Assembly: GCA_963703345.1 (NCBI GenBank)
Contig: OY969814.1
Location: 1,888,001 to 1,952,000, forward strand
DNA length: 64,000 bases
From: an uncultured Chloroflexia bacterium
GTDB lineage: Bacteria; Chloroflexota; Dehalococcoidia; DSTF01; JALHUB01
Direction: 5' to 3'
This document shows positions 6,926-54,499 of this stretch, piece by piece; the first letter of the stretch is position 1, and every line of letters begins with the position of its first letter. The notes beneath the pieces are model-generated. The model was given only the letters and a program-made list of their open reading frames with translations, searched no databases and had not been told where the DNA came from. The translations under genes were made by a program, and so were the position numbers.

Positions 6926-7162
6926 CAGACGCAGTTACTCCTTTGATCGCTCTATCTAAGGTTCGGCAAACAAAGCTGCCCGCTAAACGGGTCAGCGGTC
7001 GCCTTTGGCAGACAACCCGCGCGTTCGCCGTGTGGAGAAGGAGCCGTCAGCCGACGCTGCCCATTCCCTCTATTGCGTCGCTGCCACGACGACGCTGGAA
7101 AAGTGTCTTTCGTGGAACCACGAGAGGCGCGGAGGAAGAGCCCTTCGCATTCGGCGGAACGT

Positions 7163-7215
7163 GTGTAGAGGGCCTGTCTGTGTAGGTATGGTACCCCCGG
7201 CGGGGGTCGAACCCA
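7163..7215. repeat. Left att site: displaced tRNA-Arg 3' fragment plus flank, direct repeat of 54398-54450
   Basis: gtgtagagggYctgtctgtgtaggtatggtacccccggcggg(gg/ac)tcgaaccca occurs at both positions with 3 mismatches in 53 bp. Confidence 0.92.
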
Positions 7216-16684: not shown

Positions 16685-16851
16685 TAGAATCCTCTCGTCA
16701 GATGCCACGCGGGCAAGGCCGCGGGATTCGGCCTCGTTGAGCACCATCTGACCCTTCCCCAAGATTCGGCGGGCAGCGCTGAGTGCGGGCCGAACGGCTC
16801 GCGGACTTTTAATCCGGGAGTCGAGGGTTCGAATCCCTCACGGCCCTCCCA
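16685..16851 (+). repeat. Lys-type repeat 1: ~115-bp arm + tRNA-Lys(TTT) 3' half
   Basis: cggaCTTTTAAtccgggagtcgagggTTCGAATccctcacggccctcc; arm shared with 20762 and 22627. Confidence 0.85.
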
Positions 16852-17044
16852 GCCGTCGCAGCCGTCGCATTCGTCGTCATCGTCAAGCGCGCGTGCGCCG
16901 ACCGGGGAATGCCTCTCAAGTTCGGCCAGCCCGTTCACGCGAGCATCCCCACACGATAGCCAGAACCGACCCTGAGACCCAGCCTCCGCACTCATGCGCG
17001 GTCGATTGGCCTCAAATCTGCGCGGTTCGCGGCCTACCCGGGCG

Positions 17045-20000: not shown

Positions 20001-20509
20001 ACCGGTATGTCATTGGCCAAGGGATCGCTCAGAAAGGTGGGATCGATGAAATCCAGAGGGCTCACTCCTTCGACGAGAGCGTTGAAAGTCATCGTCGCGA
20101 CCTCACCAGAGCCGTCAACGCCAACTAGCCCATCGAACGAATAACAACCGAATGTCACTTTCCCCAGGGTCGTGTTCACGATAGCGTTGGGACATTCCAC
20201 GGTTCGTCCGCTGCTTCCCAGGAACGGTCCCTCCGTTGCCGTCTGGAAGGCAACCAGGCTCGGGTCAAACTGGAGGGTGAACTCGAAAGAGCCCAGGTTG
20301 GAGACATCGTCCAGCATCACATTGACGCTGAACGAATCCCCTGCGCTCACGTTTTGAGTAGACGGGTCGAGGCGGACGACGGCCTGTTGGGCGGAAACGA
20401 AGCTGAAGTGGTAAGCCAGGAACAGGGCGCCTGCCATCAGCGCCACGCCGAGAAGAATGCCGCGCCATGCCTTCATAACTAATATTACGGGTGCCACCGC
20501 CGGGGCCAC
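17045..20509 (-). CDS. Multi-cohesin surface protein with PT linkers, dockerin-like domain and C-terminal anchor
   Basis: Five repeats of the type LGxF(E/Q)..L.FDP...GPFLGS(S/T)GR; GDVNKDCQVNVID; VGGIAEPP-TM-RRRR tail. Start may be ATG 20476. Confidence 0.85.
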   Translation of the reverse strand: MAPAVAPVILVMKAWRGILLGVALMAGALFLAYHFSFVSAQQAVVRLDPSTQNVSAGDSFSVNVMLDDVSNLGSFEFTLQFDPSLVAFQTATEGPFLGSSGRTVECPNAIVNTTLGKVTFGCYSFDGLVGVDGSGEVATMTFNALVEGVSPLDFIDPTFLSDPLANDIPVVAENGQVTIGFPTPRPTSTPVVPTPSPTPGPTCEGAPAGVVACLRPAGQTAFNGSDFSIDLMVNNVADLGAFQASIQFDPVIASFVGAKYGPFLGSTGRSVSCDAATPSPTGNSVRLVCRTLGTHPPGPDGNGVLATITFSAIREGIGLMNLSDFVLTDIQATVIPTDALLGASVVVQPAPTPTYGPSPTPTDTPTATETVPPTATFTVGPSPTPTATLTPRATWTPGPAAPTPTNTPVGGAVTISVAPAWQQANVSVPFSVNATVDGVTDLGAYELTLDFDPAFLQVASVKNGPFLGSSGRGPSCLPPDIFGTKVRTVCLTLGPEPAGASGSGVLSILTFVPLQTGDTQVTVEKAILTNPMAGTIAVSIGGQASVTIGPAPTPTDTPLPTETYTPGPSQTPTSTATAGNEPPTPTPTLAPNVPAVLIDPPSQSVRVGDYFVVDVMARDVSNVAAYDFTVQFDPNILILSGISNGTFLGSTRRGVFCPTPTVSDRQVRFGCVSSGSAPGASGTGLLAEITFRALALGTSSLDLPAYALADPFGNTISAKAAGGSVSVSATGSVPPASKVAPRYAAVAVLLTGMAGLLVRPTGRKRSKKRIKGRAPKQPRGAGSNEIVLAKDAMMRAERGFRQLLRGCRAALSGAVVRRRGRVRIPAAFALTVTGVFGLWLVLAARVQTPSAATAADPIVLSISPSSANLWQCSGGPTDCTHDGEGKLVLADEVANVPAGTQVGGFEFTVYYDRNVVSASASEGPFLASTGRQTQCRQDQTESSLSIACTSTGSQPGPTGPGVLAYLTLTPTVTIRPTLGNGMLTNVTQSGAELSDVLRNPILIDQVSGSTILVRALEGDVNKDCQVNVIDEQAGSGRYGSSLGQWPYNIWFDLEPATGDYDIDIKDLQFVSGRYQRTCAGSVPTPTPTPTPTPVRVSGAVGGIAEPPDIAPGSPEATEPSSATDYVPWAEMAAGAVGAITVGAGLWYVRRRRAA

Positions 20510-20551
20510 CTTCTTCCGTATAGAGTCCTGCCGCCGCTCCTCGCTAGAGAG

Positions 20552-20690
20552 AAAAGCAAAGAAGCCAACCAGCGATGCGCTGGTCGGCTTCCCTTCCGGC
20601 TTGTCTGGAGACGCTTCTCCGGGCCCGTGCCGACAGCCCAGCCACCATGGCTGTCGCAGCCCCTTCTCGCGACTATTCGTCCATGCCCAT
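20552..20690 (-). promoter_or_regulatory. Structured 5' leader with intrinsic terminator upstream of the cohesin gene
   Basis: Hairpin gaagccgaccagcg-cat-cgctggttggcttc + TTTGCTTTT on the minus strand, preceded by further hairpins. Confidence 0.55.
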
Positions 20691-20761
20691 AGGGGAGAGG
20701 AGCAGTCGCGCAGTTCTATACTGTCAGCAGCAGGATTGTCTTGTCAAGACCCCTCTAGGCC

Positions 20762-20871
20762 CACCATCTGACCCTCCCCCAAGATTCGGTGAGCAGCGCC
20801 CGAGTGCGGGCCGAACGGCTCGCGGACTTTTAATCCGGGAGTCGAGGGTTCGAATCCCTCACGGCCCTCCA
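20762..20871 (+). repeat. Lys-type repeat 2: arm + tRNA-Lys 3' half ending in CCA
   Basis: Near-identical to 16742-16851. Confidence 0.87.
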
Positions 20872-21074
20872 GACGGCTTTTTTCAGATTCGATTTCCGCT
20901 CTCAAGGGCTGCTTGTTCTTCGCCTAACCCATGATTTGTCGCCTCGGCCAACCCAACCTGACCACCGGACTTGAAGTTTATGAGCCTAAAGACTGAGAGC
21001 CCTTGGCATTCGAGAGCTCTCCCGCAGATACGATTGCCGCGTCTGCAGGCCCCCTCCTCTTCGCCCGCCTCTCC

Positions 21075-21134
21075 CGGTTGAGCACCGGATTCCAAGTCCG
21101 GGAGTCGAGGGTTCGAACCCCTCACGGCCCTCCA
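21075..21134 (+). repeat. Lys-type repeat 3: degenerate tRNA fragment (loop mutated, no arm)
   Basis: cggttgagcaccggattccaagtccgggagtcgagggttcgaacccctcacggccctcca. Confidence 0.75.
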
Positions 21135-21263
21135 GAGCCCTCTTTCAGATTCGAAATCCGCCTTTCGCCCTGAAAGGCTTTCCGTGCACACAGCGGAGTT
21201 TTGGTGTAGCATCTCGGCATCGTCCGTCTGTGGGTCGTACCACTAGTTCGACAGGGGGTCAAC

Positions 21264-22595
21264 ATGCCATCGAGAAGAAAGCTCTGCCGGATGGCGCTGA
21301 GCGTGACATTCATCGCCATCGTCTTTTCGCTCACGGCCTGTGGCGGGAACGGGTCGTCCAAGCCGAGCGCGGAAGGGACGCCTGACACGACGGGTGTTAC
21401 CGACACCGAGATAACCCTAGGTACCCACTACCCCCTCAGCGGCAACCCGGCCGCCGCCTACGCAGTCATCGCCTACGGAATGAAGGCATTCTTCAACTAT
21501 ATCAATGCTCAGGGCGGCGTCTATGGCCGAAAGATCAACTTTATCATCGCCGATGACCACTACAACCCCCCTGACACGGTCGAGGTCGTCCACCAGCTCG
21601 TGGAGCAGGACCACGTCTTTGGCATCATCAGCGGTCTGGGCGAAGAGACGCACCTGGCTGTCTACAAGTACCTGGAGGAACGGGGCATTCCGGACATGTA
21701 TCTCTCCACCGGCCTCGTAGCGTGGTCTGACCCCGTTGCGCACAGCCGGTTCGCCGGAAACCCGAACTACATCATTGATGGCACTTTCCTCGGCAATTAC
21801 ATTGCAAAGACCTACCCCAATGGTAAGCTGGGCATCCTTGAGCAAAACGACGCGTTGGGCCAGGAAGGGGAAAAGGGGCTGCGGCAGGGGCTGGAAGGCA
21901 GCAACGTTGAGATTGCGGATGTGGAGAAGTATGAAGCGAGCGCTAACGACGTCTCTGCCCAGACCCAGCGGCTGAAAGCCAGCGGTGTGGATGTGCTGGC
22001 TGCGTTTGCGATGCCGGGCCAGGGCGCCAGCCTCGTGAAGACGGCGCACGAAACGCTGAACTGGAAGGTTCCTATCGCAGTAAGCGCAATCGATGTGAGC
22101 GATATTTTCATTCTGCTGGCCGGTGCTCAGAATGCGGAGGGCGTAGTAAGCGACACCTTCGGCATGCAGGTATACGACACTGAAGATCCGGGCATCCAGA
22201 AATACATGAAGATATGGGACAAGTTCCACAACGGCGTCACCGGGCCCCTGACGGACCTAGAGGAGTATGGCATGTCCAGGGCGGAGGACGTGGTATGGGA
22301 CCTCGAGATGGCCGGGAAGGACCTCTCGCGCCAGTCCTTCCTTGACGCCGCCGAAAAGATGTGCCGCGTGGACTGCTCCGTGTGCGCTCCTTGGAGCCTT
22401 GAATCCACCAGCCCGACGGACCACAAGGTATCCGAGACGCTGATCCTCAACACAGTGGTGAACGGCAAGTGGCAGACATCGGGCGACCCAGTTAGCTATG
22501 AGTCGACGAAAGAGTGCACACCGGCGACACCTCCTGACGGCTTTGATCAACAGCCGAAGCTGGGGAAGGACGCGGCCTACGTGGAGACTCCTTAG
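21264..22595 (+). CDS. ABC transporter substrate-binding lipoprotein (branched-chain amino acid type), orphan
   Basis: Lipobox LTAC; GVTDTEITLG, INAQGGVYGRKI, DDHYNP. Confidence 0.9.
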   Translation: MPSRRKLCRMALSVTFIAIVFSLTACGGNGSSKPSAEGTPDTTGVTDTEITLGTHYPLSGNPAAAYAVIAYGMKAFFNYINAQGGVYGRKINFIIADDHYNPPDTVEVVHQLVEQDHVFGIISGLGEETHLAVYKYLEERGIPDMYLSTGLVAWSDPVAHSRFAGNPNYIIDGTFLGNYIAKTYPNGKLGILEQNDALGQEGEKGLRQGLEGSNVEIADVEKYEASANDVSAQTQRLKASGVDVLAAFAMPGQGASLVKTAHETLNWKVPIAVSAIDVSDIFILLAGAQNAEGVVSDTFGMQVYDTEDPGIQKYMKIWDKFHNGVTGPLTDLEEYGMSRAEDVVWDLEMAGKDLSRQSFLDAAEKMCRVDCSVCAPWSLESTSPTDHKVSETLILNTVVNGKWQTSGDPVSYESTKECTPATPPDGFDQQPKLGKDAAYVETP

Positions 22596-22626
22596 AGGCT
22601 CTAGGCTCGACAATGAGGGGGCGAGC

Positions 22627-22759
22627 TAGAATCCGGTCGTCAGGTGCCACGCGGGCAAGACGGCGGGATTCGACCTCGCAGAGCGCCATCTGACCCTTCC
22701 CACAGATTCGGCGAGCGGTGCCGGATACGGGCCGAACGGTGAACGGACTTTTAATCCGG
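22627..22759 (+). repeat. Lys-type repeat 4: arm + anticodon stem-loop only
   Basis: Aligns with 16685-16817 and ends at cggacttttaatccgg. Confidence 0.8.
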
Positions 22760-23026
22760 CCGTCAGAGAGCGAATAAGTGATCATGCCCTTTCAACGCAC
22801 ACCATGCGTGCATCGTGTGCGGCGTTCGTGGGAACTGGTTGCCTTACCAAGCAGAGGGCCGCGGCCTCGAGTCCCCGTTTCCCGCTCGAAGTTCTCCTTT
22901 CCGGTCACACCCCTTCGGCGGCCGCGTACGGCTGGGCCAGAGGCGCACTTGGGCAGCCTGAGCGGTGGAGTCGGCTGGGGGTCTCGCCGGCCTGCGGTCG
23001 TCGGGAGCTAATAGGAACCTGTCCTC

Positions 23027-30054: not shown

Positions 30055-31275
30055 ATGCAGACCACTGATGTCTTCCTAACAGACCAGGACCGGCTCGTCC
30101 GTTCGGTAATGCGAGACTTTGTCGAACGGGAGGTCATGCCGGTCCGCCAGCAGATCGACGACGACAAGGACCACGTGGTTGTGCGCCGCCTACTCCAGGG
30201 ACTCTTCGGACTCGGCCTGATGCGCGCGGGCCTGCCCCAGGAATACGGAGGGATGGCGGCTGGCGGCGGCGGCGCGAGCAATGTCACCACCTGCCTTGTG
30301 CTGGAGGAGATATCGAGGGGTGATTGCGGCATCGCCGTTGCGGCCAGCGTAACCACCTGGGCCCTGATACCGGCGATAAGGGCGGGCAACGAGACCGTCC
30401 TGAAGCTGATGGGCGAGATGTTCGGCGGAAGTGAGCTCCGGCTGGGCTGCTTCGCCATGACCGAGCCCGCCAGTGGCTGCGACATCGAGAACCTGGCGGC
30501 ACTGCACGGCCGCCCGATTCAGACCAGGGCGGTCTTGGACGGGGATGAATGGGTCATCAACGGGGGGAAGCGCTTCCCCAGCAACGCCGGCGTCGCCGAC
30601 ATCTATTGCACTGTCTGCCAGACAGATCCCGACCTCGGCGAAGAGGGCATCGCTCTTATCTACGTACCCTCGCCGTGGGAGGGGCTGTCCTTCGGCAAGT
30701 TCGAGAGCAAGGCAGGGATGCAGGCAGACCGCAATTGCGACATCTACTTCGACAACGTGCGAGTTCCAAGGCGGTACCGCGCCGCCGGCCCGGGTGAAGA
30801 TGCCCGCCTCATGAAGCGAAACCTGACACTCGGGCGCGGCGCCAGCGCGGCGATGGCTGTGGGCAACGCCCGCGGCGCCTTCGACCGCGTCCTCGACTAC
30901 ACTGGGTCGCGAGTGGTCGAGGGACGTCCGATCCGTCAGCATTCAATGTGCGCCGGCATGCTTGCCGATATGGCGATCGGGATCGAGACGGCGCGGGCGT
31001 ACTATTTGCAGACCGCCTACATGCTCGACCGTCCGGAAGAATACGGGCAGCCGGACTCCGACGAGATGCTGTCAAGGGCCAGCCTGGCTAAGGTCCACGC
31101 CTGCGATGTCGCCGTAATGGTGGCGAACCGCGCTATGGAGTTGATGGGCTCGTATGGCTACATGCGCGAGTTCGACCTAGAGAAATACTGGCGCGACGGC
31201 AAGGAGATCCAGTTGTGGCTGGGCGGCGCGCAACTCGCCAGGCTGGATGTCGCGCGGGGCTATTACGAGCCCTAG
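30055..31275 (+). CDS. Acyl-CoA dehydrogenase
   Basis: FAMTEPASGCD, WVINGGKRF, MGSYGY..E..LEKYWRD. Confidence 0.93.
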   Translation: MQTTDVFLTDQDRLVRSVMRDFVEREVMPVRQQIDDDKDHVVVRRLLQGLFGLGLMRAGLPQEYGGMAAGGGGASNVTTCLVLEEISRGDCGIAVAASVTTWALIPAIRAGNETVLKLMGEMFGGSELRLGCFAMTEPASGCDIENLAALHGRPIQTRAVLDGDEWVINGGKRFPSNAGVADIYCTVCQTDPDLGEEGIALIYVPSPWEGLSFGKFESKAGMQADRNCDIYFDNVRVPRRYRAAGPGEDARLMKRNLTLGRGASAAMAVGNARGAFDRVLDYTGSRVVEGRPIRQHSMCAGMLADMAIGIETARAYYLQTAYMLDRPEEYGQPDSDEMLSRASLAKVHACDVAVMVANRAMELMGSYGYMREFDLEKYWRDGKEIQLWLGGAQLARLDVARGYYEP

Positions 31276-31361: not shown

Positions 31362-31411
31362 TCTGATTTACACCCAGAAGGGCGCAGGTTCGAGCCCTGC
31401 ATCGCCCACCA
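31362..31411 (+). repeat. Val-type repeat 1: tRNA-Val(TAC) 3' half
   Basis: TTTACACccagaagggcgcaggTTCGAGccctgcatcgcccACCA. Confidence 0.85.
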
Positions 31412-31492
31412 GAACCCCTTCGGAATAGCCAGAAGGTTCGCGGGGCCTCATCATGAGGCCCCGCTGTCGTTTCGCCTGAGCGCCTCTTGCGG

Positions 31493-32215
31493 CTAAGGCG
31501 TTGGGGTGACGGTCGGCGTAGCTGTCTTCGTGGGCGTTGGCGTGCTCTCGATGTTGAAGTCGTTTGGACCAATGACGACGGGCGCGGTCACGTCCGAGCT
31601 ATGAATCGCATCGAACCAGAGCTCATACTGGTCAATGTCGCCAACATCGATGGCGCTCGTGTCAACGGAGACGTCGAACGTCCCTGTATCGTTATCATCG
31701 ATGTCTTCCGGCGTCGTGCTGAAGTCGTGGCCAACTGCTATTACGTTGCCGTCGTTGTCAAACAGCGCGGCGCAGACGTGGACGTTCTCCAGGTCTTGGT
31801 TGGCGTCGATGGAACCCGTGATATGCGTCTCGTCTTCATTGGCAGTCGTAGTGATGACGATGTTGTCTTCGTCGACGTCAAGATCTGCGACGCTCTTGTG
31901 ACCGAAGGTGAGCGCCCTGACAGTCTCTTTCGTCGTCCTCGCGTTTATCGAAGACGGCGCAGTTGCCTCAACTGGCGAATCCATCCCCTTCTGCAGAGTG
32001 CGGGTGCAGGGACTCACATTCTTGGAGTGGACGATGGTGCCGGAGCTGTTCAGGAAGTCCACCTGAACGGATGCTGCGACCACATCCACGTTCGAGAGGT
32101 TGGTCGCTAGACCAACAAAGTGGTTCGTGTCCCTGTCGAACGTCCCGAAGCGGACGAAGCAACCGGCGGCGAGGATTCCTGTTACCGCGAGGGCGAGGAC
32201 CAATAGACGCTTCAT
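31493..32215 (-). CDS. Lipoprotein with FxLYD-like domains
   Basis: MKRLL...LAAGC lipobox with RBS AGGAGG; AALFDNDGNVI. Confidence 0.75.
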   Translation of the reverse strand: MKRLLVLALAVTGILAAGCFVRFGTFDRDTNHFVGLATNLSNVDVVAASVQVDFLNSSGTIVHSKNVSPCTRTLQKGMDSPVEATAPSSINARTTKETVRALTFGHKSVADLDVDEDNIVITTTANEDETHITGSIDANQDLENVHVCAALFDNDGNVIAVGHDFSTTPEDIDDNDTGTFDVSVDTSAIDVGDIDQYELWFDAIHSSDVTAPVVIGPNDFNIESTPTPTKTATPTVTPTP

Positions 32216-32415
32216 TCTTGCCTCCTTTCGACACTTCAACGGATCGCCAAAGCTCGGCGGTCTACATTGATGATAACGCGCGCCGGAGAGGAAAGTTAAC
32301 CGGATTTCGACATTTCTTAAGCCGCAATAGCAACCTGCAACGGGCCGCCCCAAAAAGTAAGGCAGGCCGCTAGAGGCGCACTCGGCAGAGCTCGCTACCC
32401 AACCACGGTTGAACG

Positions 32416-32605
32416 CCAGCTTCCCACTTATGAAGCCATTACACAGAGCTTCCCCTAGGACTAGTCGCAGTTGCGGCTAATGGCCCATTTTCCAGATGAT
32501 AACTTCCGCGTTTTCGCTCGGGGGTGCTGAATCTGTTGCACAGCGCTCAGGCTCAGATGCTTTACACCCAGAAGGTCGCAGGTTCGAGCCCTGCATCGCC
32601 CACCA
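32416..32605 (+). repeat. Val-type repeat 2: ~145-bp arm + tRNA-Val 3' half
   Basis: Aligns over its length with 33721-33910. Confidence 0.88.
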
Positions 32606-32909
32606 AAACCGCTGCCGAGCGGCGCTTCTCGCCCTGGCTAATCACAAGAATGTTTGGCGCCACCCTTGACAGGCTGTTGACGTAGGAGTAGTTTGTCAGC
32701 GCACAGACGAAGGGACCGCCGGTGATTGCTCCACCGACGGCCCCAGTTGCCGAGCCCTGACGCCGCCAGGGTCGACCTGCTCACTCTAGCATGGTGGGCC
32801 CCGACCGCGGAAGGGTTGGGGCCTTCTGTTTGGAGGCGGAGCACAGAGAATGGAGCCCAGCGGAAGTGCTTCGATAGCCAGGGCAAAGTAGGAAACAAGG
32901 AGGTTCCCC

Positions 32910-33233
32910 ATGCCACATTACATGGTTCAGGCGGCCTACTCCCAGGCGGCAACGGCCGCGATGGTGAAGAACCCACAGGACCGGGCCGAGGGGCTGCGCC
33001 CGGTAATCGAGCGGCTTGGAGGCAAACTCCTCTCTCTGTACTTCGCTTTCGGTGAATACGATGTCGTGGGAGTGGCGGAGATGCCAGACAACGTTTCCTC
33101 CGCCGCCTTCTCGATAGCCATCTCCGCAGGCGGGGCAGTTAGGGCAGTAAAGACGACGCCTCTAATGACCGTGCAGGAAAGCATCGAGGCTATGCGGAAA
33201 GCGGGTCAAGCTGCTTATCGCCCGCCAGCCTAG
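32910..33233 (+). CDS. GYD domain protein
   Basis: LGGKL...YFAFGEYD motif; RBS AAGGAGG. Confidence 0.88.
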   Translation: MPHYMVQAAYSQAATAAMVKNPQDRAEGLRPVIERLGGKLLSLYFAFGEYDVVGVAEMPDNVSSAAFSIAISAGGAVRAVKTTPLMTVQESIEAMRKAGQAAYRPPA

Positions 33234-33298
33234 GCGAGTCCTTTCGCCGAAGCCAGCTTCGGCGGTGGTCCCCAGAGCACACAAGGAGGGAACAGCAC

Positions 33299-33598
33299 AT
33301 GTTATGCGTGGCTATCGGGACGCCAGTACGCGGCCTGACTAGGCAGCAGGCACAGGAGTACACAACACTGTTCCGGCAGTGGGCACCCCCTCCCGGATAT
33401 GACATGAAGACGCTGTACTGGGGCTCAGATGGCAGTGTCGTTGTCATAGCCGAAATCACGACATCAGCCGCCAACTACGAGGCGGGGCTGCCTTGGACGA
33501 ACATGGAGTGGAAGCTCATACCGGTTGTCGAGGGAGCCCAAGCGGTGCAAATGCAAGACAAGGTTACTGCCTGGGCGCAGAAGATTCTGGGGAGCTAG
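33299..33598 (+). CDS. Hypothetical protein (DUF3303-like)
   Basis: RBS AGGAGG; W.PPPG...PW..IPVVE pattern. Confidence 0.65.
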   Translation: MLCVAIGTPVRGLTRQQAQEYTTLFRQWAPPPGYDMKTLYWGSDGSVVVIAEITTSAANYEAGLPWTNMEWKLIPVVEGAQAVQMQDKVTAWAQKILGS

Positions 33599-33720
33599 GG
33601 ACAAGTTCCTGTATTGCGGGGGCCGCCGCCGCGCTCTGGGGGCCGGTTCCTTCGGGCCGGCCCCCGACAGCGGGTGATAGGCGTCGCCTATAGCCTACGG
33701 TCTCAGGCGGTTTCCTAAGA

Positions 33721-33910
33721 CCAGCTTCCTGATTATGAAGCTATTGCGCAGAGCTTTCACTGGGATCAGTCGCACTCGCCCCTGATGGCCCATTTTTCAG
33801 ATGATAGCTTCCGCGTTTTCGCTCAGGGATGCTGATTTTGTTGCACAGCGCTCAGGCCTGGCTGCTTTACACCCAGAAGGCTGCAGGTTCGAGCCCTGCA
33901 TCGCCCACCA
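33721..33910 (+). repeat. Val-type repeat 3: arm + tRNA-Val 3' half
   Basis: Aligns with 32416-32605 and ends in CCA. Confidence 0.88.
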
Positions 33911-34063
33911 TAGCCCTCAAGCACATTCGCTTTCCGCGTTTTCTGTCACTGACGTCGCAACGTCGTTAACCAATCGCCCCGCCATGCGTTATCAATAACG
34001 TCGCACATCCTCCTCACGCTCGCATCGGAACCAGCGCCATGATTCGATAAGAGGCGAAACACG

Positions 34064-35230
34064 ATGTATAGGCTTCTGCTCCTAGGCGTTGTTCTTGGAT
34101 GCCTGCCATTGTCTTCCACAGCTACTCAGGCCAGCGCCAATACGTTCATTCAGGTCAGCGCCGGCGCCTATCACACCTGCGCAGTAAGGACGGACAGTAC
34201 ACTGGCCTGCTGGGGAAGCAACTACGACTATCACGGGCTTTGGATCGGGCAGGCGACGCCACCCACCGGCACCTTCAGCCAAGTCAGCGCTGGCGGTTAT
34301 CACACTTGCGGCGTAAGGACGGACGGTACCCTTGCCTGCTGGGGCGACAACAACTATCAAGAGGCGACGCCACCCAGCGGCACCTTCAGCCAGGTCAGCG
34401 CGGGCTTCCAATATACGTGCGGCGTCAGGACGGACGGCAGGCTAGCGTGCTGGGGAGCCCCTTCCGAGGACTACGGGCAAGTGACACCACCAAGCGGCAC
34501 TTTCGGCCAGGTCAGTGCGGGCGGCTTTAGCACGTGCGGGCTGAGGACCGACGGCACCGTCGCCTGCTGGGGGAGGAGTGGGGAGGTTGGGACTCCGCCC
34601 TCCGGCACCTTCAGCCAGATCAGTCAGACCAGCACGCGCACTTGCGGCGTGAAGACGGACGGCACGCTGGCCTGCTGGGGCGAGTACGGCCAGCTTGAGA
34701 CGCTACCCGCCGGCACTTTCACGCAGGTCAGCGTGGGAGGCTTTCACACGTGTGGACTGAAGGCCGACGGCACGATCGTTTGCTGGGGAGGAAACTCCCA
34801 GGGCCAGGCGACACCACCCGCCGGAACCTTCAGCCAGGTGAGCGCAGGCGGTTATCACACCTGCGCCGTAAAGACAGACGGTACCATGGCCTGCTGGGGC
34901 AGCAACTACGATGTCAAGGGGATCCGCACGGGGACCCAGTACTTCGGGCAGGCGACACCGCCTACGTCCGAAGCCACCCCAACCACCACGCCGGTGTCAA
35001 CATACGCGCCGACCCCAACCGAGGCCTACTCACCTTCACCGACAGAGACACCCACCCTCACGGGTTCGCCCGAGGCTCCTGGCACAGTGAGCCCCCCGTT
35101 CACAGGAATCGCCCACCGTTCTCGGGCACCGTCGGCGGCCTGGGCGATAGCGATCTGCACAGCAGCCGTTGGTGGCACGATGCTGCTGGCTGGCGGGCTG
35201 TACGCCAGGAGGCGTTGGGGAACCCGGTAA
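34064..35230 (+). CDS. RCC1-repeat surface protein with C-terminal anchor
   Basis: Seven F.QVSAG..HTC...TDGTLACWG repeats; PPFTG + TM + RRR tail. Confidence 0.9.
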   Translation: MYRLLLLGVVLGCLPLSSTATQASANTFIQVSAGAYHTCAVRTDSTLACWGSNYDYHGLWIGQATPPTGTFSQVSAGGYHTCGVRTDGTLACWGDNNYQEATPPSGTFSQVSAGFQYTCGVRTDGRLACWGAPSEDYGQVTPPSGTFGQVSAGGFSTCGLRTDGTVACWGRSGEVGTPPSGTFSQISQTSTRTCGVKTDGTLACWGEYGQLETLPAGTFTQVSVGGFHTCGLKADGTIVCWGGNSQGQATPPAGTFSQVSAGGYHTCAVKTDGTMACWGSNYDVKGIRTGTQYFGQATPPTSEATPTTTPVSTYAPTPTEAYSPSPTETPTLTGSPEAPGTVSPPFTGIAHRSRAPSAAWAIAICTAAVGGTMLLAGGLYARRRWGTR

Positions 35231-35271
35231 GGTTCGCGACAGAAGCCCCAATCAATACCATCAGCCGAGCC

Positions 35272-35381
35272 GCGCAGAATAGGGCACTGGGCACTAATCG
35301 CAATCGCGCATATTGGCCCAATTTCCAGATGATAACTTCCGCGTTTTCGCTCGGGGGTCCTGAATCTGATGCACAGCGCTC
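35272..35381 (+). repeat. Val-type repeat 4: arm only, cut just before the tRNA part
   Basis: tggccca.tttccagatgataacttccgcgttttcgctcgggggt.ctgaatctg.tgcacagcgctc matches 32481-32548. Confidence 0.82.
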
Positions 35382-35491: not shown

Positions 35492-35519
35492 TTGACATTC
35501 GCCGCTCCCTGCGTATCAT
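35492..35519 (+). promoter_or_regulatory. Sigma70-type promoter TTGACA-16-TATCAT
   Basis: About 70 bp upstream of the res start. Confidence 0.5.
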
Positions 35520-35587
35520 GGCGAACGAAAGCCAATTTCCCCGCACAATCGTATTCGACGTGCCCACGCAGGTTCGAGGGAGCGAGC

Positions 35588-38500
35588 ATGGCGCAGGTTG
35601 TCATTGAGAACCCCGTCCTCAACTCACCTTACCGGGAGCCACAGCGCCACTTCCAGTTCGCCGACGAGGGTATAACCGACGAGATCGTCGAGGCGCGGCG
35701 GCCCAGCTCGTACTTCGTCCCCATACCTGCGCCCAAGAAGAAGGGCAAGCAACTCGCCTTCGACACGGAATGGACGAAGGACCGTGTCGAAGAAAACGAG
35801 TTCATCAACCAGGTACGGGAGCGCGTGGCCCGCTGGCGACAGGGCGGCTACGTCGGCATCACCAAGACAACACGCCAGCTTCTCGACTACTGGCAGCGGG
35901 GAGACCGCGAGAAGAAGCTATTCTTCTGCCAAGTCGAGGCGCTGGAAACCGCCATCTTTCTGACGGAGGTCGCCTCTAAGTACGGCGACGCCTGGATCGA
36001 CAACAAGCTGCGTGACGAGAACAAGCGCGCCAACTCCATACTGAACCGCATCGCCTTCAAGATGGCGACCGCCGCCGGCAAGACCGTCGTCATGGCGATG
36101 CTCATCTCTTGGCAGGCCCTCAACAAGCTCCGCGACCCCCAGGACGCCCGATTCTCCGACGCGTTCCTCATCGTCACGCCGGGCATCACCATTCGCGACC
36201 GCCTCCGCGTCCTGCTGCCCAACGACCCGAACAACTACTACCGGGAGCGCGACGTCCTGCCGGCGGAGTGGCTGGAAGAGCTTGGCCGCGCCAAGATCGT
36301 TATCACCAACTTCCACGCCTTCCTCTTGCATGAGCGCGGCGAGGCCGGAAAGGTCACCAAGAGCATTCTCAAGGGCAACCAGGAGGAGAGCGCCTTCACC
36401 GAGACCCCCGCCCAAATGGTTCGCCGTGCCTGCCGTGACCTCGGAAGCAAAAAGAACATCGTCGTCATCAACGACGAAGCGCATCATTGCTATCGCCGCA
36501 AGGCCGACGGCGACGACGTGAAGTTAACCGGCGACGAGCGCAAGGAAGCGGAGAGACGCGAAGAGGAGGCCCGCGTCTGGATTTCCGGTCTGGAGGCGGT
36601 CAAGGACAAGATCGGGGTCAAGGTGGTGTACGACCTCTCGGCCACGCCCTTCTTCCTCCGCGGCTCCGGCTACCCCGAGGGCACGCTCTTCCCCTGGGTC
36701 GTCTCCGACTTCTCGCTCATCGACGCCATCGAGTCCGGCATCGTGAAGGTGCCACGGGTGCCTGTGGCCGACGACTCGATGTCCGGCGACCAGCCGACCT
36801 ACCGCGACCTCTGGATACGCATTCGCGAGGAACTGCCCAAGAAAGGACGCAAGACGGACGCCGTCAGCGGCGAGCCCAAGCTCCCGGTCGAGTTAGAGGG
36901 CGCCCTCCATAGCCTGTACGGAAACTACGAGAAGTCCTACCGGCTCTGGGAGCAGAACGCGGAGGCCCGCGCCCGCGACCAGACGCCGCCGGTCTTCATC
37001 GTCGTCTGCAACAACACCAACGTCTCCAAGCTGGTGTTCGACTACGTCGCCGGCTGGGAGAAGACGCTCCCCGACGGCTCGAACGCCATCGTCCCCGGCG
37101 CGCTGCCAGTCTTCAGCAACGAGCAGAACGGAGGCTGGAGCGCCCGGCCCAACACCATCCTCGTCGACAGCTCCCAACTCGAATCCGGCGAGGCGATGAG
37201 CGCCGACTTCAAGAAGATCGCTGCCGCTGAGATTGAAAAGTTCAAATGGGAATACCGGCAGCGCACGGGCCGGGACGCTGAAGGGCTCACCGACGAGGAT
37301 CTACTGCGCGAGGTGATGAACACTGTTGGCAAGCAGGGCAAGCTGGGCGAGAACGTCAAGTGCGTCGTCTCCGTCTCCATGCTCACCGAGGGCTGGGACG
37401 CCAACACCGTCACTCACATCCTGGGCGTGCGCGCCTTCGGGACGCAGCTACTGTGCGAGCAGGTGGTGGGTCGTGGCCTGCGGCGGACGAGCTACGCCAC
37501 GGAGCGCCGCACGGTCGCTGTGAATGGCAGTACGGTGGAGATCGAGGCGTTCGCCCCGGAATACGCCGAGGTCTACGGCGTGCCCTTCTCGTTCATCCCC
37601 TGCTCCGGTTCCCGTGCCGACCCCAAGCCCGGCCCGATGCCCACTCGCGTGCGCGCCCTCGAAGACCGCATCGCCTGCGAGATCACCTTCCCCCGCCTCG
37701 TCGGCTACCGCTACGACCTGCCGGGCGAGCGGCTGACGGCGACATTCAGCGACGCGTCGAAACTCGCCCTCTCGACCGCCGACATCCCAACGAAGACACA
37801 CCTGGAACCGATCTTCGGAGAAGGCAGCACCCACACGCTCGACGAGCTCAAGCGGCGTCGCGAGCAAGAGGTTGCGTTCCTGCTGGCCAAGCTAACGCTG
37901 GAGCAGTACTTCCGTGATGACGACGGCAACGTCAAGCAGTACCTCTTCCCCCAGGTGCTGGGGATCGCCAACCGCTGGCTGCGCGAGTGCGTCGTCCTCA
38001 AAGACAACACCTTCCCCCAGCTCCTGCTCCTCGCCGAGTTCGCGCACGACGCCGCCGACCGTATCTATCGCTCCATCGTCGCCTCCGCCGGTGGCGAGAA
38101 GGCGCTGAAGCCGATCATGCGTCCCTACGACCCGGTGGGCTCCACGCGCTACGTCGACTTCGACACCACGAAGGCGGTGTATCCAACACGTCCGGACAAA
38201 TGTCACGTCAGCCATGTTGTGGCGGACACTGAATCCTGGGAGCAGAAGATGGCCCAGGCCCTCGAAGAGATGGATGAGGTACTGCGCTACGTGAAGAACC
38301 AGAGTCTCGGCTTCACCATCCCCTACACGCTGAACGGCGAGGAGAGAGGCTACATTCCGGACTACATTGTGGTCATCGACGACGGCCACGACGACTCGCT
38401 GAACCTGATCGTTGAGGTTACCGGCGAGGCGAAGAAAGACAAGGCGGCGAAGGCAGAGACCGCCCGCACCCTCTGGGTGCCCGCCGTCAACAACCACGGC

Positions 38501-38593
38501 GGCTTCGGGCGATGGGCCTTCATTGAGGTTACCGACCCCTGGGACGCCCAGAACACCATTCGCGCAATGCTGCGGAAGCTATCGCAGGAGTAG
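35588..38593 (+). CDS. res: Type III restriction enzyme Res subunit
   Basis: MATAAGKT, NDEAHH, LSATP, EGWD helicase motifs; C-terminal YIPD...IVEVTG nuclease. Confidence 0.92.
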   Translation: MAQVVIENPVLNSPYREPQRHFQFADEGITDEIVEARRPSSYFVPIPAPKKKGKQLAFDTEWTKDRVEENEFINQVRERVARWRQGGYVGITKTTRQLLDYWQRGDREKKLFFCQVEALETAIFLTEVASKYGDAWIDNKLRDENKRANSILNRIAFKMATAAGKTVVMAMLISWQALNKLRDPQDARFSDAFLIVTPGITIRDRLRVLLPNDPNNYYRERDVLPAEWLEELGRAKIVITNFHAFLLHERGEAGKVTKSILKGNQEESAFTETPAQMVRRACRDLGSKKNIVVINDEAHHCYRRKADGDDVKLTGDERKEAERREEEARVWISGLEAVKDKIGVKVVYDLSATPFFLRGSGYPEGTLFPWVVSDFSLIDAIESGIVKVPRVPVADDSMSGDQPTYRDLWIRIREELPKKGRKTDAVSGEPKLPVELEGALHSLYGNYEKSYRLWEQNAEARARDQTPPVFIVVCNNTNVSKLVFDYVAGWEKTLPDGSNAIVPGALPVFSNEQNGGWSARPNTILVDSSQLESGEAMSADFKKIAAAEIEKFKWEYRQRTGRDAEGLTDEDLLREVMNTVGKQGKLGENVKCVVSVSMLTEGWDANTVTHILGVRAFGTQLLCEQVVGRGLRRTSYATERRTVAVNGSTVEIEAFAPEYAEVYGVPFSFIPCSGSRADPKPGPMPTRVRALEDRIACEITFPRLVGYRYDLPGERLTATFSDASKLALSTADIPTKTHLEPIFGEGSTHTLDELKRRREQEVAFLLAKLTLEQYFRDDDGNVKQYLFPQVLGIANRWLRECVVLKDNTFPQLLLLAEFAHDAADRIYRSIVASAGGEKALKPIMRPYDPVGSTRYVDFDTTKAVYPTRPDKCHVSHVVADTESWEQKMAQALEEMDEVLRYVKNQSLGFTIPYTLNGEERGYIPDYIVVIDDGHDDSLNLIVEVTGEAKKDKAAKAETARTLWVPAVNNHGGFGRWAFIEVTDPWDAQNTIRAMLRKLSQE

Positions 38594-38597
38594 ATCA

Positions 38598-41450
38598 ATG
38601 GCACAGAAGAAGGCGAGCGGCAAGTCCGTCCCCGTCGACGCGACGCGACACAGGGACAAACGCAAGAACATCCCCACCGAGGAGCTGCGAGACTTCGTCG
38701 CTGAGGACGAGGCGCAGCCCCAGAAGATGCTTTACCCCCGCGACCCGTCGCTCGACCCGCAGCTCGTCTGGAAAGGCAAGGACGAGCAGGACCAGCAGGA
38801 CCTGGAAGTGCCCGTCGTGCCCGTCTACATCCAGGAGAAGATCAGCCCCCAGGCCATCGTGGAGGAGGTGCGGGCGCAGGCGCGCAAGGAGCGGCCGGAA
38901 GCGCAGCTCAACCTCTTCGCCGACTTCAACGGCATCGCCTTTGAGGAGATGGTCGACTTCTACCACCACGAGCAGAACTGGTCGAACCGCATGATCCTGG
39001 GCGACTCCCTCCTCGTCATGACCTCGCTGGCGGAGAAGGAAGGACTGAAGGGCAAGGTCCAGACGGTCTACGTCGACCCGCCCTACGGCATCAAGTTCGG
39101 CTCCAACTGGCAGGTGAGCACCCGCAAGCGCGACGTTAAGGATGGCAAGGTGGATGATGCCACCCGCCAGCCGGAGCAGATAAAGGCCTTCCGCGACACC
39201 TGGGAGCTGGGCATCCATTCCTACCTGGCCTACCTGCGCGACCGGCTGGTGGCGGCGCGAGAGCTGCTGACGGAGACGGGCAGCGTGTTTGTCCAGATAG
39301 GCGACGAGAACGTGCACCTGGTGCGCTGCCTAATGGATGAGGTCTTCGGCAGCGAGAACTTCTGCCTGCTCGTTTCGTTCGCAAAGACCGGAGGCCAAAG
39401 CAATGACCTCTTGTCGGTCGTCGGTGACTACTTGATCTGGTATGCGAAGGATCGGGCTACAGTGAAATTCCGCCAGCCGTACCTGAACAAGAGCGGCGCG
39501 ATCGGAGGAACCCAGGGGTACGATTGGATCGAATTGAAGACCGGCGAACGCCGGCGCATGTCGAGGGAGGAGAAAGAGAACCCTTCGTTGGTTGAGGAGT
39601 TGGGGGCACGGGTCTTCATGGCTGCTGACCTAACTTCTGCCGAAGATCGCCCATCCACTACGGTTAAATTCTGTTTTGAGGGGCGAGATTACTATCCGGG
39701 GGCCAACAGACACTGGCGAGTCCTTCCCTCATTCCTTCAGACTCTCGCGTCCCAGGAACGGTTGTTGGCTCTGGGGAACACGCTCAGGTTTGTGCAGTAC
39801 CTCGACGATTTCCCTGTTTCCGCGCTGTCGAACAATTGGGGGGATACCGGCATTGCTGGCTTCACGTCTGACAAAATCTACACCGTACAGACAAATACGA
39901 AGGTCATCGAGCGTTGCGTCGTTATGACCACCGACCCAGGCGATCTAATCCTCGATCCCACCTGCGGCAGCGGCACCACCGCCTACGTCGCGGAGCAGTG
40001 GGGCCGCCGCTGGATCACCATCGATACCTCCCGCGTCGCCCTAGCCCTCGCCCGCACCCGGCTCATGTCCGCCCGCTTCCCCTACTTCGTCCTGGCGGAC
40101 TCGCCGGGAGGGGTCGCGAAAGAGGCGGAAGTCGCCGGAGCGTCGCCGGCGGCCTTCGGCGGCGCGCAGACGGCGGGGGACATCAAGAAGGGGTTCGTCT
40201 ACGAGCGCGTCCCCCACGTAACCCTCAAGTCCATCGCCAACAACGAGGAGATCGACGCCATCCACGCCCGCCGGCAGGAGCAGATCGAGCCGGTGCGGCA
40301 GCGCCTCAACGCCGCCCTCAAGCAGACCTGGGAGGACTGGCAGGTGCCGCGGGAGGAGTCGCCGCAGTGGCCGGCGGAGGCGAAGCGACTGCACGAGGAG
40401 TTCTGGCGGCTGCGTCGCGAGCGCCAGCAGGAGATCGACGCCTCGATAGCCCGCAATGCCGACGTCGAGTTGCTCTACGACCAGCCCTATGAGGACAACA
40501 AGCGGGTGCGCGTCACCGGCCCGTTCACGGTCGAGAGCCTGTCGCCGCATCGCGTCCTGTCGGCCGAGGCGGAGCGGCCGCAGAGCGAGCAGGAGGCGCA
40601 GCGGGAGGCAACGAACGGCCAGTTCGAGACGATGATCATCGAGAACCTGCGCAAGGCGGGCGTCCAGAACATGCGCCGCAACGAGCGGCTCAAGTTCGAC
40701 CGGCTGGAGCCCTACGCCGGCCTCTGGCTCCAGGGCGCCGGCGAGTATACCGACAAGGGTGGCATGAGCCGTCGCGTCGCCGTGTCCCTCGGGCCGGAGC
40801 ACGGGACGGTCGGGCCGGAGCAGGTGAAGGAGGCGGCGAAGGAGGCCCTGCGCGGCGCCGGCTTCGACCTGCTGGTGGTCTGCGGCCTGGCGTTCGACGC
40901 CCACGCCGGGGAGACGGCGAAGGAGTTCTCGCCCCAGTCGAAGCGGGCGGAGGGCTTCGCCATCGCCGAGGAGACAAAACAGTACGGCAAGCTACCCGTC
41001 ATGCTGGCGCGCATCAACGCCGACCTGACGATGGGCGACGAGGTGCTGAAGAAGACGGGCGCCGGTAACCTGTTCATGGTCTTCGGCGAGCCGGACATCG
41101 CGATCAGCGAGGTCGAGGGTGGCAAGCTGGTCGCCGAGGTGCGCGGCGTTGACGTGTACGACCCGACGACGGGGGAGATACGCTCCAGCTCGACGGACGA
41201 CATCGCCTGCTGGTTCATCGACACCAACTACAACGGCGAGAGCTTCTTCGTCCGCCACGCCTATTTCACGGGCGCCGAGGAGCCGTACGACAAGCTGAAG
41301 CGCGCCCTTCGCGCCGAGATCGACGAGTCGGCGTGGTCGGCGCTCTACCAGACGCGCAGCTACCCCTTCGAGCGGCCGGAGACGGGGAAGATCGCGGTCA
41401 AGGTCATCAACCACTACGGCGACGAGGTGCTAAAGGTCTACGAGGTGTAG
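38598..41450 (+). CDS. mod: Type III DNA methyltransferase Mod subunit
   Basis: DPPYGI, DPTCGSGTT, AVKVINHYGDE. Confidence 0.92.
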   Translation: MAQKKASGKSVPVDATRHRDKRKNIPTEELRDFVAEDEAQPQKMLYPRDPSLDPQLVWKGKDEQDQQDLEVPVVPVYIQEKISPQAIVEEVRAQARKERPEAQLNLFADFNGIAFEEMVDFYHHEQNWSNRMILGDSLLVMTSLAEKEGLKGKVQTVYVDPPYGIKFGSNWQVSTRKRDVKDGKVDDATRQPEQIKAFRDTWELGIHSYLAYLRDRLVAARELLTETGSVFVQIGDENVHLVRCLMDEVFGSENFCLLVSFAKTGGQSNDLLSVVGDYLIWYAKDRATVKFRQPYLNKSGAIGGTQGYDWIELKTGERRRMSREEKENPSLVEELGARVFMAADLTSAEDRPSTTVKFCFEGRDYYPGANRHWRVLPSFLQTLASQERLLALGNTLRFVQYLDDFPVSALSNNWGDTGIAGFTSDKIYTVQTNTKVIERCVVMTTDPGDLILDPTCGSGTTAYVAEQWGRRWITIDTSRVALALARTRLMSARFPYFVLADSPGGVAKEAEVAGASPAAFGGAQTAGDIKKGFVYERVPHVTLKSIANNEEIDAIHARRQEQIEPVRQRLNAALKQTWEDWQVPREESPQWPAEAKRLHEEFWRLRRERQQEIDASIARNADVELLYDQPYEDNKRVRVTGPFTVESLSPHRVLSAEAERPQSEQEAQREATNGQFETMIIENLRKAGVQNMRRNERLKFDRLEPYAGLWLQGAGEYTDKGGMSRRVAVSLGPEHGTVGPEQVKEAAKEALRGAGFDLLVVCGLAFDAHAGETAKEFSPQSKRAEGFAIAEETKQYGKLPVMLARINADLTMGDEVLKKTGAGNLFMVFGEPDIAISEVEGGKLVAEVRGVDVYDPTTGEIRSSSTDDIACWFIDTNYNGESFFVRHAYFTGAEEPYDKLKRALRAEIDESAWSALYQTRSYPFERPETGKIAVKVINHYGDEVLKVYEV

Positions 41451-42135: not shown

Positions 42136-42846
42136 CTAGGTGCCACCCAGCCGCCAGAAGGGCCCGGTCTTCCCCAGCTTTAACAGGGTATTCAGCGTCT
42201 CGTCTTCCAGCTGCATCATACGAGGCAGGTAGTCAGGGGCAAGGCGCTCTCGAAACATGCCCCCTCCGAACAACTGAGCGTAGTCTCTGAGCGGCATCGT
42301 GCCATCGGCGCTGCCGGCATCGTACTGGGTCCAGTTGCGAACGTGCTCTTCCGACCGGAAGAGATTCATGCCGCTTCAGGAGAAGGCTATATTCTCCTCC
42401 CAGCGTGACAAGGGCACGTTGACGTGCCCGACGACGGAGGGCGGTGAGGCTTCCAGAATTTCGCCGTCTCGCATGCGGACTCGTATCGGTTCATTGCAGT
42501 CAAGGCAGGGGCAGTCGATTTGGACTTCTTTGCCAGGGTAGAGCCAGCTGACCGCTAGCGACTCAAACCCTCACTGCCCGTACCATTTCTGCTGGCCGTC
42601 CACAGATATCAGGTACTGCGTCGGGATGTTGGAGAACGGCGCGAAAGACGCGATGTAGTCAGTGCCCGGCTGGAGCCAGAAGCCCGTTATTCCTGCGCCT
42701 TCGAGATCATGAAGGGCATCCCGTGCCGCATCAGGCGAGAGAGCCAGTTGAGTGGCGAGTTCCGTGTAGTGTGGGGCGCGACCGTCGGCAACCAGACGGC
42801 TGATGATGGCGTGATACATCCTTGCCAGGAGTTCGGGTTCTGCCGT
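42136..42846 (-). CDS. MerB (organomercurial lyase)-like selenoprotein with two in-frame UGA codons
   Basis: Continuous frame ...APFSNIPT...WYGQ-U-GFESLAV...CPCLDCNEPIRV...AFS-U-SGMNLFRSEEH; TGA at 42571-42573 and 42376-42378, each followed by a hairpin. Confidence 0.8.
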
Positions 42847-42988
42847 GGTGCACCTCCTTCGCTTTCAAGCCCCGCAGATTAGCGTGGTGCAGACCATAGC
42901 ACAACCGCTCGCGGCTGCATAGATGGCCCTGGGGTCTGAACACCGGTGGCCCTCGCGGCGCTGGCCCCGTCCCTCATGACACACTTCC

Positions 42989-43025
42989 ACCGTGCGAGCA
43001 ACCCGCTGCCTATCACGCAGAGGGT
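42989..43025 (+). repeat. Asp-type repeat 1 (tRNA-Asp-like anticodon arm)
   Basis: accgtgcgagcaacccgctgcctatcacgcagRgggt, repeated at 48438-48474 with one mismatch. Confidence 0.8.
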
Positions 43026-43184
43026 CATCAACCATCGTTCCGGGATCGGCGCTCTGTGCTACTCACTGCGCAGGGGCGACTGAGCGCGAGACTTCCACAG
43101 ATATGGATGGAGTTTTGACACCCCACAGCCAAAATGTAATCCATATCCGGACGAATGAAGAGAGCGAATAATCGGAGATGAGTT

Positions 43185-48437: not shown

Positions 48438-48474
48438 ACCGTGCGAGCAACCCGCTGCCTATCACGCAGGGGGT
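48438..48474 (+). repeat. Asp-type repeat 2
   Basis: Direct repeat of 42989-43025. Confidence 0.8.

Positions 48475-52988: not shown

Positions 52989-54499
<1,511 letters not shown>

Follow-up and report, generated by a model that had tools for sequence, protein, structure and literature searches.

The minus strand of the window, by which we mean the whole 64,000-nucleotide stretch of DNA that was analysed, carries a single frame at 42846..42136 that consists of 236 codons followed by TAG and contains exactly two TGAs, and the read-through product is predicted to be a MerB-fold protein with two selenocysteine (Sec) residues. The TGAs lie in the contexts WYGQ-U-GFE (U92) and AFS-U-SGMNLF (U157), and the short ORFs 42571..42819 and 42136..42369, which a preliminary description made from the sequence alone had joined across a gap, are indeed the portions of this one frame before TGA 1 and after TGA 2. 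We conclude with high confidence that the double-selenoprotein MerB-fold family represented by this gene is real, and it was not found in the selenoprotein catalogues that we checked. The features of the locus are collected in Table 1. Three of the points developed below had not appeared in the preliminary description, namely a Glu in place of the MerB Asp99, an ACG start, and the distinctness of the family from SaoL.

Table 1. Features of the two-TGA gene and its upstream region, in window coordinates.
Feature	Position	Strand	Details
Read-through coding frame, MerB-fold protein with two predicted Sec	42136..42846	-	Pfam MerB 71.5 bits, cut-off 27; model
Domain make-up of the read-through protein: N-terminal winged-helix domain, MerB catalytic domain, extra C-terminal helix	42136..42846	-	
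TGA 1, predicted Sec92, aligned to MerB Cys96	42571..42573	-	
TGA 2, predicted Sec157, aligned to MerB Cys159	42376..42378	-	
Glu95, aligned to catalytic Asp99 of MerB	42562..42564	-	
C114-L-D-C117 motif, C114 aligned to MerB Cys117	42496..42507	-	
SECIS-type hairpin 1	42536..42570	-	Upper stem 42559-42554 / 42548-42543; 5-nt loop GGUCA; UGA 17 nt away
SECIS-type hairpin 2	42337..42375	-	Upper stem 42363-42357 / 42352-42346; 4-nt loop GGUC; UGA 19 nt away
ACG at the start position (ATG in relatives)	42844..42846	-	
Shine-Dalgarno-like AAGGAGG, 6 nt upstream of ACG	42853..42859	-	
Extended -10-like element TGTG-N-TATGGT	42893..42903	-	Found by eye in 5 of 10 upstream regions of sufficient length; putative promoter
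Alternative in-frame ATG without a well-spaced Shine-Dalgarno	42817-42819	-	

The Pfam MerB model (PF03243) covers residues 71-188 of the read-through protein with 71.5 bits against a gathering threshold of 27. In the alignment with the solved structures of E. coli MerB, U92, E95, and U157 fall on Cys96, Asp99, and Cys159, respectively, as they do on the equivalent positions of MerB2, and C114 falls on Cys117. A structural model, for which Cys was put at both Sec sites and an alignment of 76 sequences served as input, was predicted with a mean pLDDT of 95.2. When this model was searched with Foldseek, every one of the 11 matches at E <= 0.001 was a MerB chain. In a wide search with VIA-align, MerB2 scored a Z of 17.2 (rmsd 3.4, 191 aligned) and MerB a Z of 15.3, and the best unrelated matches were winged-helix proteins that fit the N-terminal domain with Z <= 9.7. 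Sec92 and Sec157 are separated by 65 residues in the sequence and, by homology with MerB, would meet at one metal site. C114 and C117 are each present in 75 of the 76 aligned members.

Each TGA is followed by a hairpin that agrees with the published consensus of bacterial SECIS elements (a loop of 3-9 nt, a stem of 4-16 bp, a G in the first two loop positions, 16-37 nt from the UGA, and MFE <= -7.5; PMC13188914) in loop, stem, G position, spacing, and energy, with stems of 6 and 7 bp and energies of -16.7 and -15.6 kcal/mol for hairpins 1 and 2, respectively. Both hairpins had been pointed out in the preliminary description; the predicted fold of hairpin 1, GCTAGC-GGTCA-GCTGGC, is slightly shifted in register from the one given there. 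Compared with dinucleotide shuffles, neither hairpin is exceptional by itself (z of -1.17 and -1.79); compared with 300 synonymous recodings, each outfolds all but one. About 100 homologues share both hairpins, and changes among them preserve pairing. The inner six pairs of hairpin 2 are intact in 101-102 of the 102 distinct site-2 sequences, six of which carry a compensatory change from C-G to U-A, and 98 have the loop GGUC. Within this hairpin, the codons for Leu, Arg, and Ser are fixed in 100, 98, and 101 of these sequences, respectively, whereas conserved codons upstream are not. For hairpin 1, a full six-pair stem and a GU-containing loop occur together in 94 of 96 genes with TGA versus 5 of 18 genes with Cys, a count in which kin are not independent and the 5' arm is partly set by the search pattern. 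The 3'-arm codon in the TGA genes encodes Cys, Ser, Arg, or Gly, yet its last two bases are the same in all 96. The mean MFE at site 1 does not separate the TGA from the Cys genes (z of -0.9 and -1.2), and it is the pair-by-pair count alone that does so. Among distant relatives bearing Asp, hairpin 2 is present in all nine with TGA at site 2 and lost in all five with Cys. A search of Rfam returned no RNA family near the gene.

Members with both TGAs occur in 12 of the 401 genomes of the host's class and in two more genomes of a phylum sample, one of them with three copies. In a metagenome collection, an estimated 1,600 stretches match a pattern that accepts any TGN at site 1 (non-TGN codons being excluded) and leaves site 2 unconstrained. 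The 120 loci listed are 41-85% identical to the query. Site 1 is TGA in 102 of them and TGC or TGT in 18, with no instance of TGG; all 111 loci that reach site 2 have TGA there, and no stop lies between the sites. Alignment with homologues, which the preliminary description had proposed as the check on its reading, thus gave TGA or Cys and never TGG. The surrounding W, Q, G, E, L, and A are fixed by the pattern, and their invariance in the metagenome set is by construction. The support for Glu is independent of the pattern, because all homologues listed in the protein search (119 scored in addition to the query) have Glu at the Asp99 position; one close genome member (L209) has Asp instead. 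In a quick tree of 98 rows, the Glu-bearing Sec family forms one branch (SH-aLRT 99), and the tree requires some 10 changes at the first site and 3 at the second, with no direction of change implied. The TAG found within one relative (G539) does not coincide with a Sec site. A scan of genome contigs with a single protein gave only one match, of 26 residues, which was discarded as spurious. A more distant MerB-like group (L041, L043, L049, L050, L198, L202, and L205-L207) carries the canonical C-x-x-D at site 1; its only TGA is the one at site 2, which has a hairpin as in the family, and the group would represent a further single-Sec form without the CU motif of SaoL.

Of the 120 database proteins listed, 23 extend over the full length and have W at both sites, another full-length one has Ser/Cys, and almost all of the remainder stop at site 2; at site 1, Ser was seen in one database protein and Phe in one. 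In a profile search, 39 of 165 aligned stretches end at site 1, 16 end at site 2, and 5 begin past site 2. The preliminary description had taken Trp at these positions in homologues as an observation against its reading. On paper the W records are such an observation, but given that the DNA loci show no TGG, we infer that they are gene calls made with code 4.

The Sec machinery, on which the reading had been made to depend, is present in the host, whose genome is one contig of 2.28 Mb. SelA, selB, and selD were all found above curated cut-offs together with a tRNA-Sec(UCA) (selC), and the host SelD has its own in-frame TGA followed by a hairpin tipped by GGUC. SelA was found in 19 of 20 further class genomes that carry a member with TGA, and the twentieth has selB and tRNA-Sec. 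Because selA matches were also found in 10 of 12 other genomes tested, we regard the machinery as a necessary condition rather than a correlation. RF2 is present and TGA ends 430 of the 1,026 host frames of at least 400 codons, indicating that TGA is an ordinary stop in this organism. Decoding of the two TGAs as Trp (code 4), for which the W records would speak, or their origin as nonsense mutations in a pseudogene is thus very improbable and was rejected, as TGG is absent from site 1 in 120 DNA loci, where the pattern permits it, and from site 2 in 111, RF2 is in place, MerB itself has Cys in both columns, and both TGAs are common to proteins of 41-85% identity. Instead, with TGAs at both catalytic-cysteine columns of MerB, a SECIS-type hairpin after each, and the host machinery, the substitution of Sec for both catalytic cysteines that had been claimed is well supported, and each UGA is very likely recoded by its own SECIS through SelB and tRNA-Sec.

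The family can be told apart from the described MerB-like proteins. It shares with MerB (NF033555, PF03243; PDB 3f0o and related) and MerB2 (5c17) the fold over residues 3-206 and the positions of the catalytic triad and of Cys117, but has Sec/Glu/Sec in place of Cys/Asp/Cys, an added CxxC, an unmatched extra C-terminal helix (206-223), and 15-22% identity. The gene has no mer operon, as had been stated, and the host has no MerA. Canonical MerB was rejected as an assignment with 25.3 bits against the NF033555 cut-off of 200; of the canonical signature, only Cys117 is found (C114), Cys96 and Cys159 both being TGA (predicted Sec) and Asp99 being Glu95. SaoL (NF040728) was likewise rejected, with 37.1 bits against a cut-off of 140 and a best E of 6.5e-13 among 76 members. 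None of the 76 comes near the SaoL or MerB cut-offs, and, at E <= 0.001, the three MerB-type models are the only NCBIfam models with a match. SaoL is described as having one Sec in a CU dipeptide, Cys99, Asp102, and a nine-gene SAO locus mostly of Firmicutes (NF040728; Haft and Gwadz, accessible part of bioRxiv 10.1101/2022.07.06.499078). The family resembles SaoL in its MerB fold, in Sec at the MerB Cys159 position, in the lack of a mer operon, in database entries truncated at the UGA, and in a function that is unproven. It differs in having Sec at both ligand positions, Glu for Asp, S-U at site 2, where Cys is not among the four commonest preceding residues, and U-x-x-E at site 1. SAO genes were absent among the neighbours of both host copies and of the relatives. 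The SaoB model had no match in the host, nor in any of the control genomes.

With the bacterial multi-Sec proteins (MbdU NF045648, FrhD/VhuD, UxxU rhodanese, and Prx-like forms; PMC13188914 Table 1), the family shares two Sec per chain, each needing its own recoding signal, but none of the multi-Sec proteins in that table is MerB-like with two Sec. In the 119-family table of the same 2026 catalogue (PMC13188914), SaoL, with one Sec, is the sole MerB-like entry. The accessible part of PMC9312934 contains SaoL-type sequences only, the four MerB entries in the available portion of the deep-Sep reference list (PMC12013277, supplement 3) are all of the SaoL type, and MerB is not mentioned in the BSepDB text and one supplement, as far as these were available. 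A search of the literature, short of most subscription journals, the bioRxiv supplements, and the BSepDB database itself, returned no description of a two-Sec MerB.

The start codon distinguishes the window copy from its relatives, in which ATG lies six or seven bases past a strong Shine-Dalgarno. The start window holds ATG in 117 of 131 loci, the other 14 including GTG starts and truncated contigs, and in 10 of the 11 public contigs that cover the start base. The one public contig with ACG is identical at 110 of 113 bases, has a different upstream flank, and was independently assembled; as ACG recurs there, the allele is probably genuine. Initiation at codons of this class reaches 0.1-1% of that at AUG in E. 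coli (bioRxiv 10.1101/063800, accessible text), and the window copy is likely to be weakly translated. A sigma-70 scan called no promoter upstream of the gene. No RNA data set is listed as containing the stretch, an absence that has no bearing on expression. In the same genome, a paralog at C1:177126-177824 is 78% identical, has the same two TGAs and starts with ATG, and would be the likelier working copy of the host. It is therefore a serious possibility, if somewhat short of an even chance, that the family is real yet the window copy, as a duplicate, is in decay or almost silent because the change of ATG to ACG has removed efficient initiation. The rarity of ACG, its weakness as an initiator, and the intact paralog all favour this. 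However, the frame, both TGAs, both hairpins, the Shine-Dalgarno, and the -10-like element are all intact, ACG is also present in the independently assembled contig with its 3 differences in 113 bases, and an in-frame ATG (Met10) nine codons downstream could serve, although it is poorly signalled. Such decay would affect this copy alone, leaving the family as it is, and is compatible with each of the mechanisms considered below.

On one side, the window copy is flanked by a type III restriction-modification-like pair (35492-41450), which consists of a ResIII helicase and an N6/N4 methylase and has no syntenic match in three same-genus genomes, and on the other by a PAS/HD-domain gene. A tyrosine recombinase, a serine recombinase, and a tRNA-Arg are found 8-12 kb away. 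Because the 35-43 kb stretch lacks a syntenic match in the three same-genus genomes while the tRNA-proximal genes are shared, we consider this region a variable island. The earlier statement that the gene rides on a mobile element holds to the extent that the copy lies in this island, near a tRNA-Arg and with two recombinases, and is absent at this place from those genomes. Beyond that it finds no support: the paralog lies elsewhere on the chromosome, and the plasmid and phage collections contain no close relative. Among 72,556 plasmids, 98 records matched, with identity below 30% among the matches listed and none covering 80%, and among 50,697 phages no match to the family was found. On this evidence, the family is not tied to mobile DNA.

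Several repeats were observed in the window. A 67-nt direct repeat (88%) at 7149-7215 and 54384-54450, 47 kb apart, includes the 3' end of tRNA-Arg(CCG) and adjoins the serine recombinase (52989-54488), and its two copies are possible attachment sites bounding the island. The regions 16685-22764 and 31364-35381 contain repeated pieces resembling tRNA 3' ends and repeats of 90-200 nt (D3, D5, D7-D9, D12, and D13), which suggests tandem integrations at tRNA-like sites. At 42948-43131 there are two short intergenic elements that are repeated in the genome, one of 37-79 nt (also at 48438-48474) and the other of 30-60 nt at four further places; they have high depth in public contigs and no Rfam match.

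The gene neighbourhood of the family is heterogeneous. Of the 120 metagenome loci, 80 entered the neighbour scan, the other 40 having short flanks, and their 100 nearest ORFs, 70 of which have a Pfam match, are of diverse kinds and include no mer gene. Among 21 carrier genomes, MerA scored above the cut-off in 5, the host not being one of them, and HgcA in none. Clustering of 1,294 neighbour ORFs revealed no family-wide neighbourhood, and the gene is mostly solitary, which fits a self-sufficient enzyme. The only block that emerged was one of OYE and ETF genes. In the closest clade (72-78% identity), each of the seven genomes has an OYE/FadH-type flavoenzyme no more than about 2.5 kb from a copy and six also have ETF alpha/beta nearby, with the gene order and orientation shuffled. 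The OYE subfamily of this module occurs in 11 of the 401 class genomes, 4 of which lack the gene. The host's sole member of the module's acyl-CoA dehydrogenase subfamily lies 11 kb from the window copy, at 30055-31275, with 63% identity to the subfamily, whereas the next host protein has 30%. The association with OYE and ETF may reflect either functional coupling or a co-transferred block. In one genome (G190), the gene and the whole flavoprotein module occur twice in nearly identical form, at C1:43000-57000 and C1:1536500-1550500 (L176 and L177), representing either a recent duplication or an assembly artefact.

Mercury has affinity for selenium. Judging from the MerB site, the two selenolates of the family probably bind one soft metal. 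In MerB, the substrate is bound by Cys96 and then Cys159, the leaving carbon is protonated by Asp99, and selenoamino-acid demethylation chemistry has also been described (PMC10114901, accessible text). By analogy, an organomercurial, most likely methylmercury, would be clamped between the two selenolates, and the neighbouring Glu95 would act as proton donor for cleavage of the metal-carbon bond. As the host has no MerA, the Hg(II) formed in this way would remain bound as Se-Hg-Se until stripped off by sulfide or thiols, and at trace concentrations the protein would act as a high-affinity trap or a slow lyase. With the geometry and the acid retained, and given the affinity of mercury for selenium, a Sec/Sec/Glu trap or slow lyase with R-Hg as the physiological target is the single likeliest role, although we put it slightly below an even chance. 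Several points argue against it. Binding of Hg by Se may be too tight for turnover, which counts against an organomercurial lyase. The metagenome loci have no mer gene nearby, and MerA is missing from the host and from most carriers. The presence of OYE and ETF beside the closest-clade gene points to metabolism rather than resistance, and up to three copies per genome would be odd for an enzyme against a trace toxin. Glu also replaces Asp99, which is essential in MerB, where the Ser variant is much weaker (accessible text of PMC10114901).

A redox enzyme built on the MerB fold is a less likely alternative to the organomercurial role. Here the two Sec would cycle between selenolates and a diselenide and act on peroxides, disulfides, or an oxidised metabolite, possibly with a relay via the conserved C114xxC117 and re-reduction via the neighbouring OYE/ETF flavoproteins. 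The constant adjacency of the rare OYE subfamily in the closest clade and the near-invariant CxxC fit this proposal, as do a catalase near two and an AhpD-like protein near one of the closest-clade loci, two peroxiredoxins near a module without the gene, and the view that the majority of selenoproteins are redox proteins (PMC13188914). However, four of the 11 OYE-module genomes lack the gene, the window copy adjoins neither OYE nor ETF, OYE is only 1 of the 100 scanned metagenome neighbours, and the module could be no more than a block of genes transferred together. Also, an acid is retained at the position of Asp99, as protonolysis would need.

We give similarly low credence to the handling of another metal or metalloid, in which a soft metal such as Cu, Ni, As, Pb, or Sn would be the cargo or cofactor, or in which an organometal or organometalloid other than an organomercurial would be cleaved, as has been proposed for SaoL. 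The MerB site binds further metals and a single change of Asp99 leads to Cu binding (PMC10114901; bioRxiv 10.1101/2022.07.06.499078, both in their accessible parts), so that the exchange of Asp for Glu together with two Cys for Sec could retune the site; the lack of mer context, with 16 of 21 carriers having no MerA, is consistent with this. On the other hand, the scanned neighbours include no recurring metal transporter, ars, or cop gene and one ArsR-type regulator in 100, and no result points to a substrate.

Surveys of MerB demand Cys96/Asp99/Cys117/Cys159 (PMC8261052, accessible text). Because it fails the Cys/Asp filter and gene callers fragment the gene or write Trp into the active site, the family, with its estimated 1,600 stretches in one metagenome collection, is invisible to such surveys. 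The enzymes of anoxic methylmercury loss are an open question (PMC10114901, accessible text), for which the family offers a concrete candidate whose natural Cys/Cys, Cys/Sec, and Sec/Sec forms can be compared. Its more specific identification as a widespread, mer-independent methylmercury demethylase of sediment and soil bacteria with an all-selenium ligand pair (Sec/Sec plus Glu) is speculative and, on the sequence evidence, rather unlikely; if true, it would give the first genetic marker of anoxic demethylation, hidden from merB surveys. Whatever the substrate, both thiolate ligands of one site appear to have become selenolates, each with a SECIS that decays once Cys returns, making the family a clean system for what selenium buys and for SECIS gain and loss.

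Two crude genome scans for additional selenoproteins were noisy. Outside the window, the large subunit of a host [NiFe]-hydrogenase (PF00374; L222:3083-4357 (+), C1 near 933,600-934,900) carries an in-frame TGA in its N-terminal metal motif, in the place of the first Cys (R-I-U-G-I-C); an 8-bp hairpin whose loop begins with G comes next, and the C-terminal motif retains Cys. From its sequence and neighbours, we take this enzyme to be group-3-like. In hydrogenases, Sec is reported to be N-terminal in group 4 and C-terminal in groups 1 and 3 (PMC13582414, accessible text), and the host enzyme may thus be a further Sec variant.
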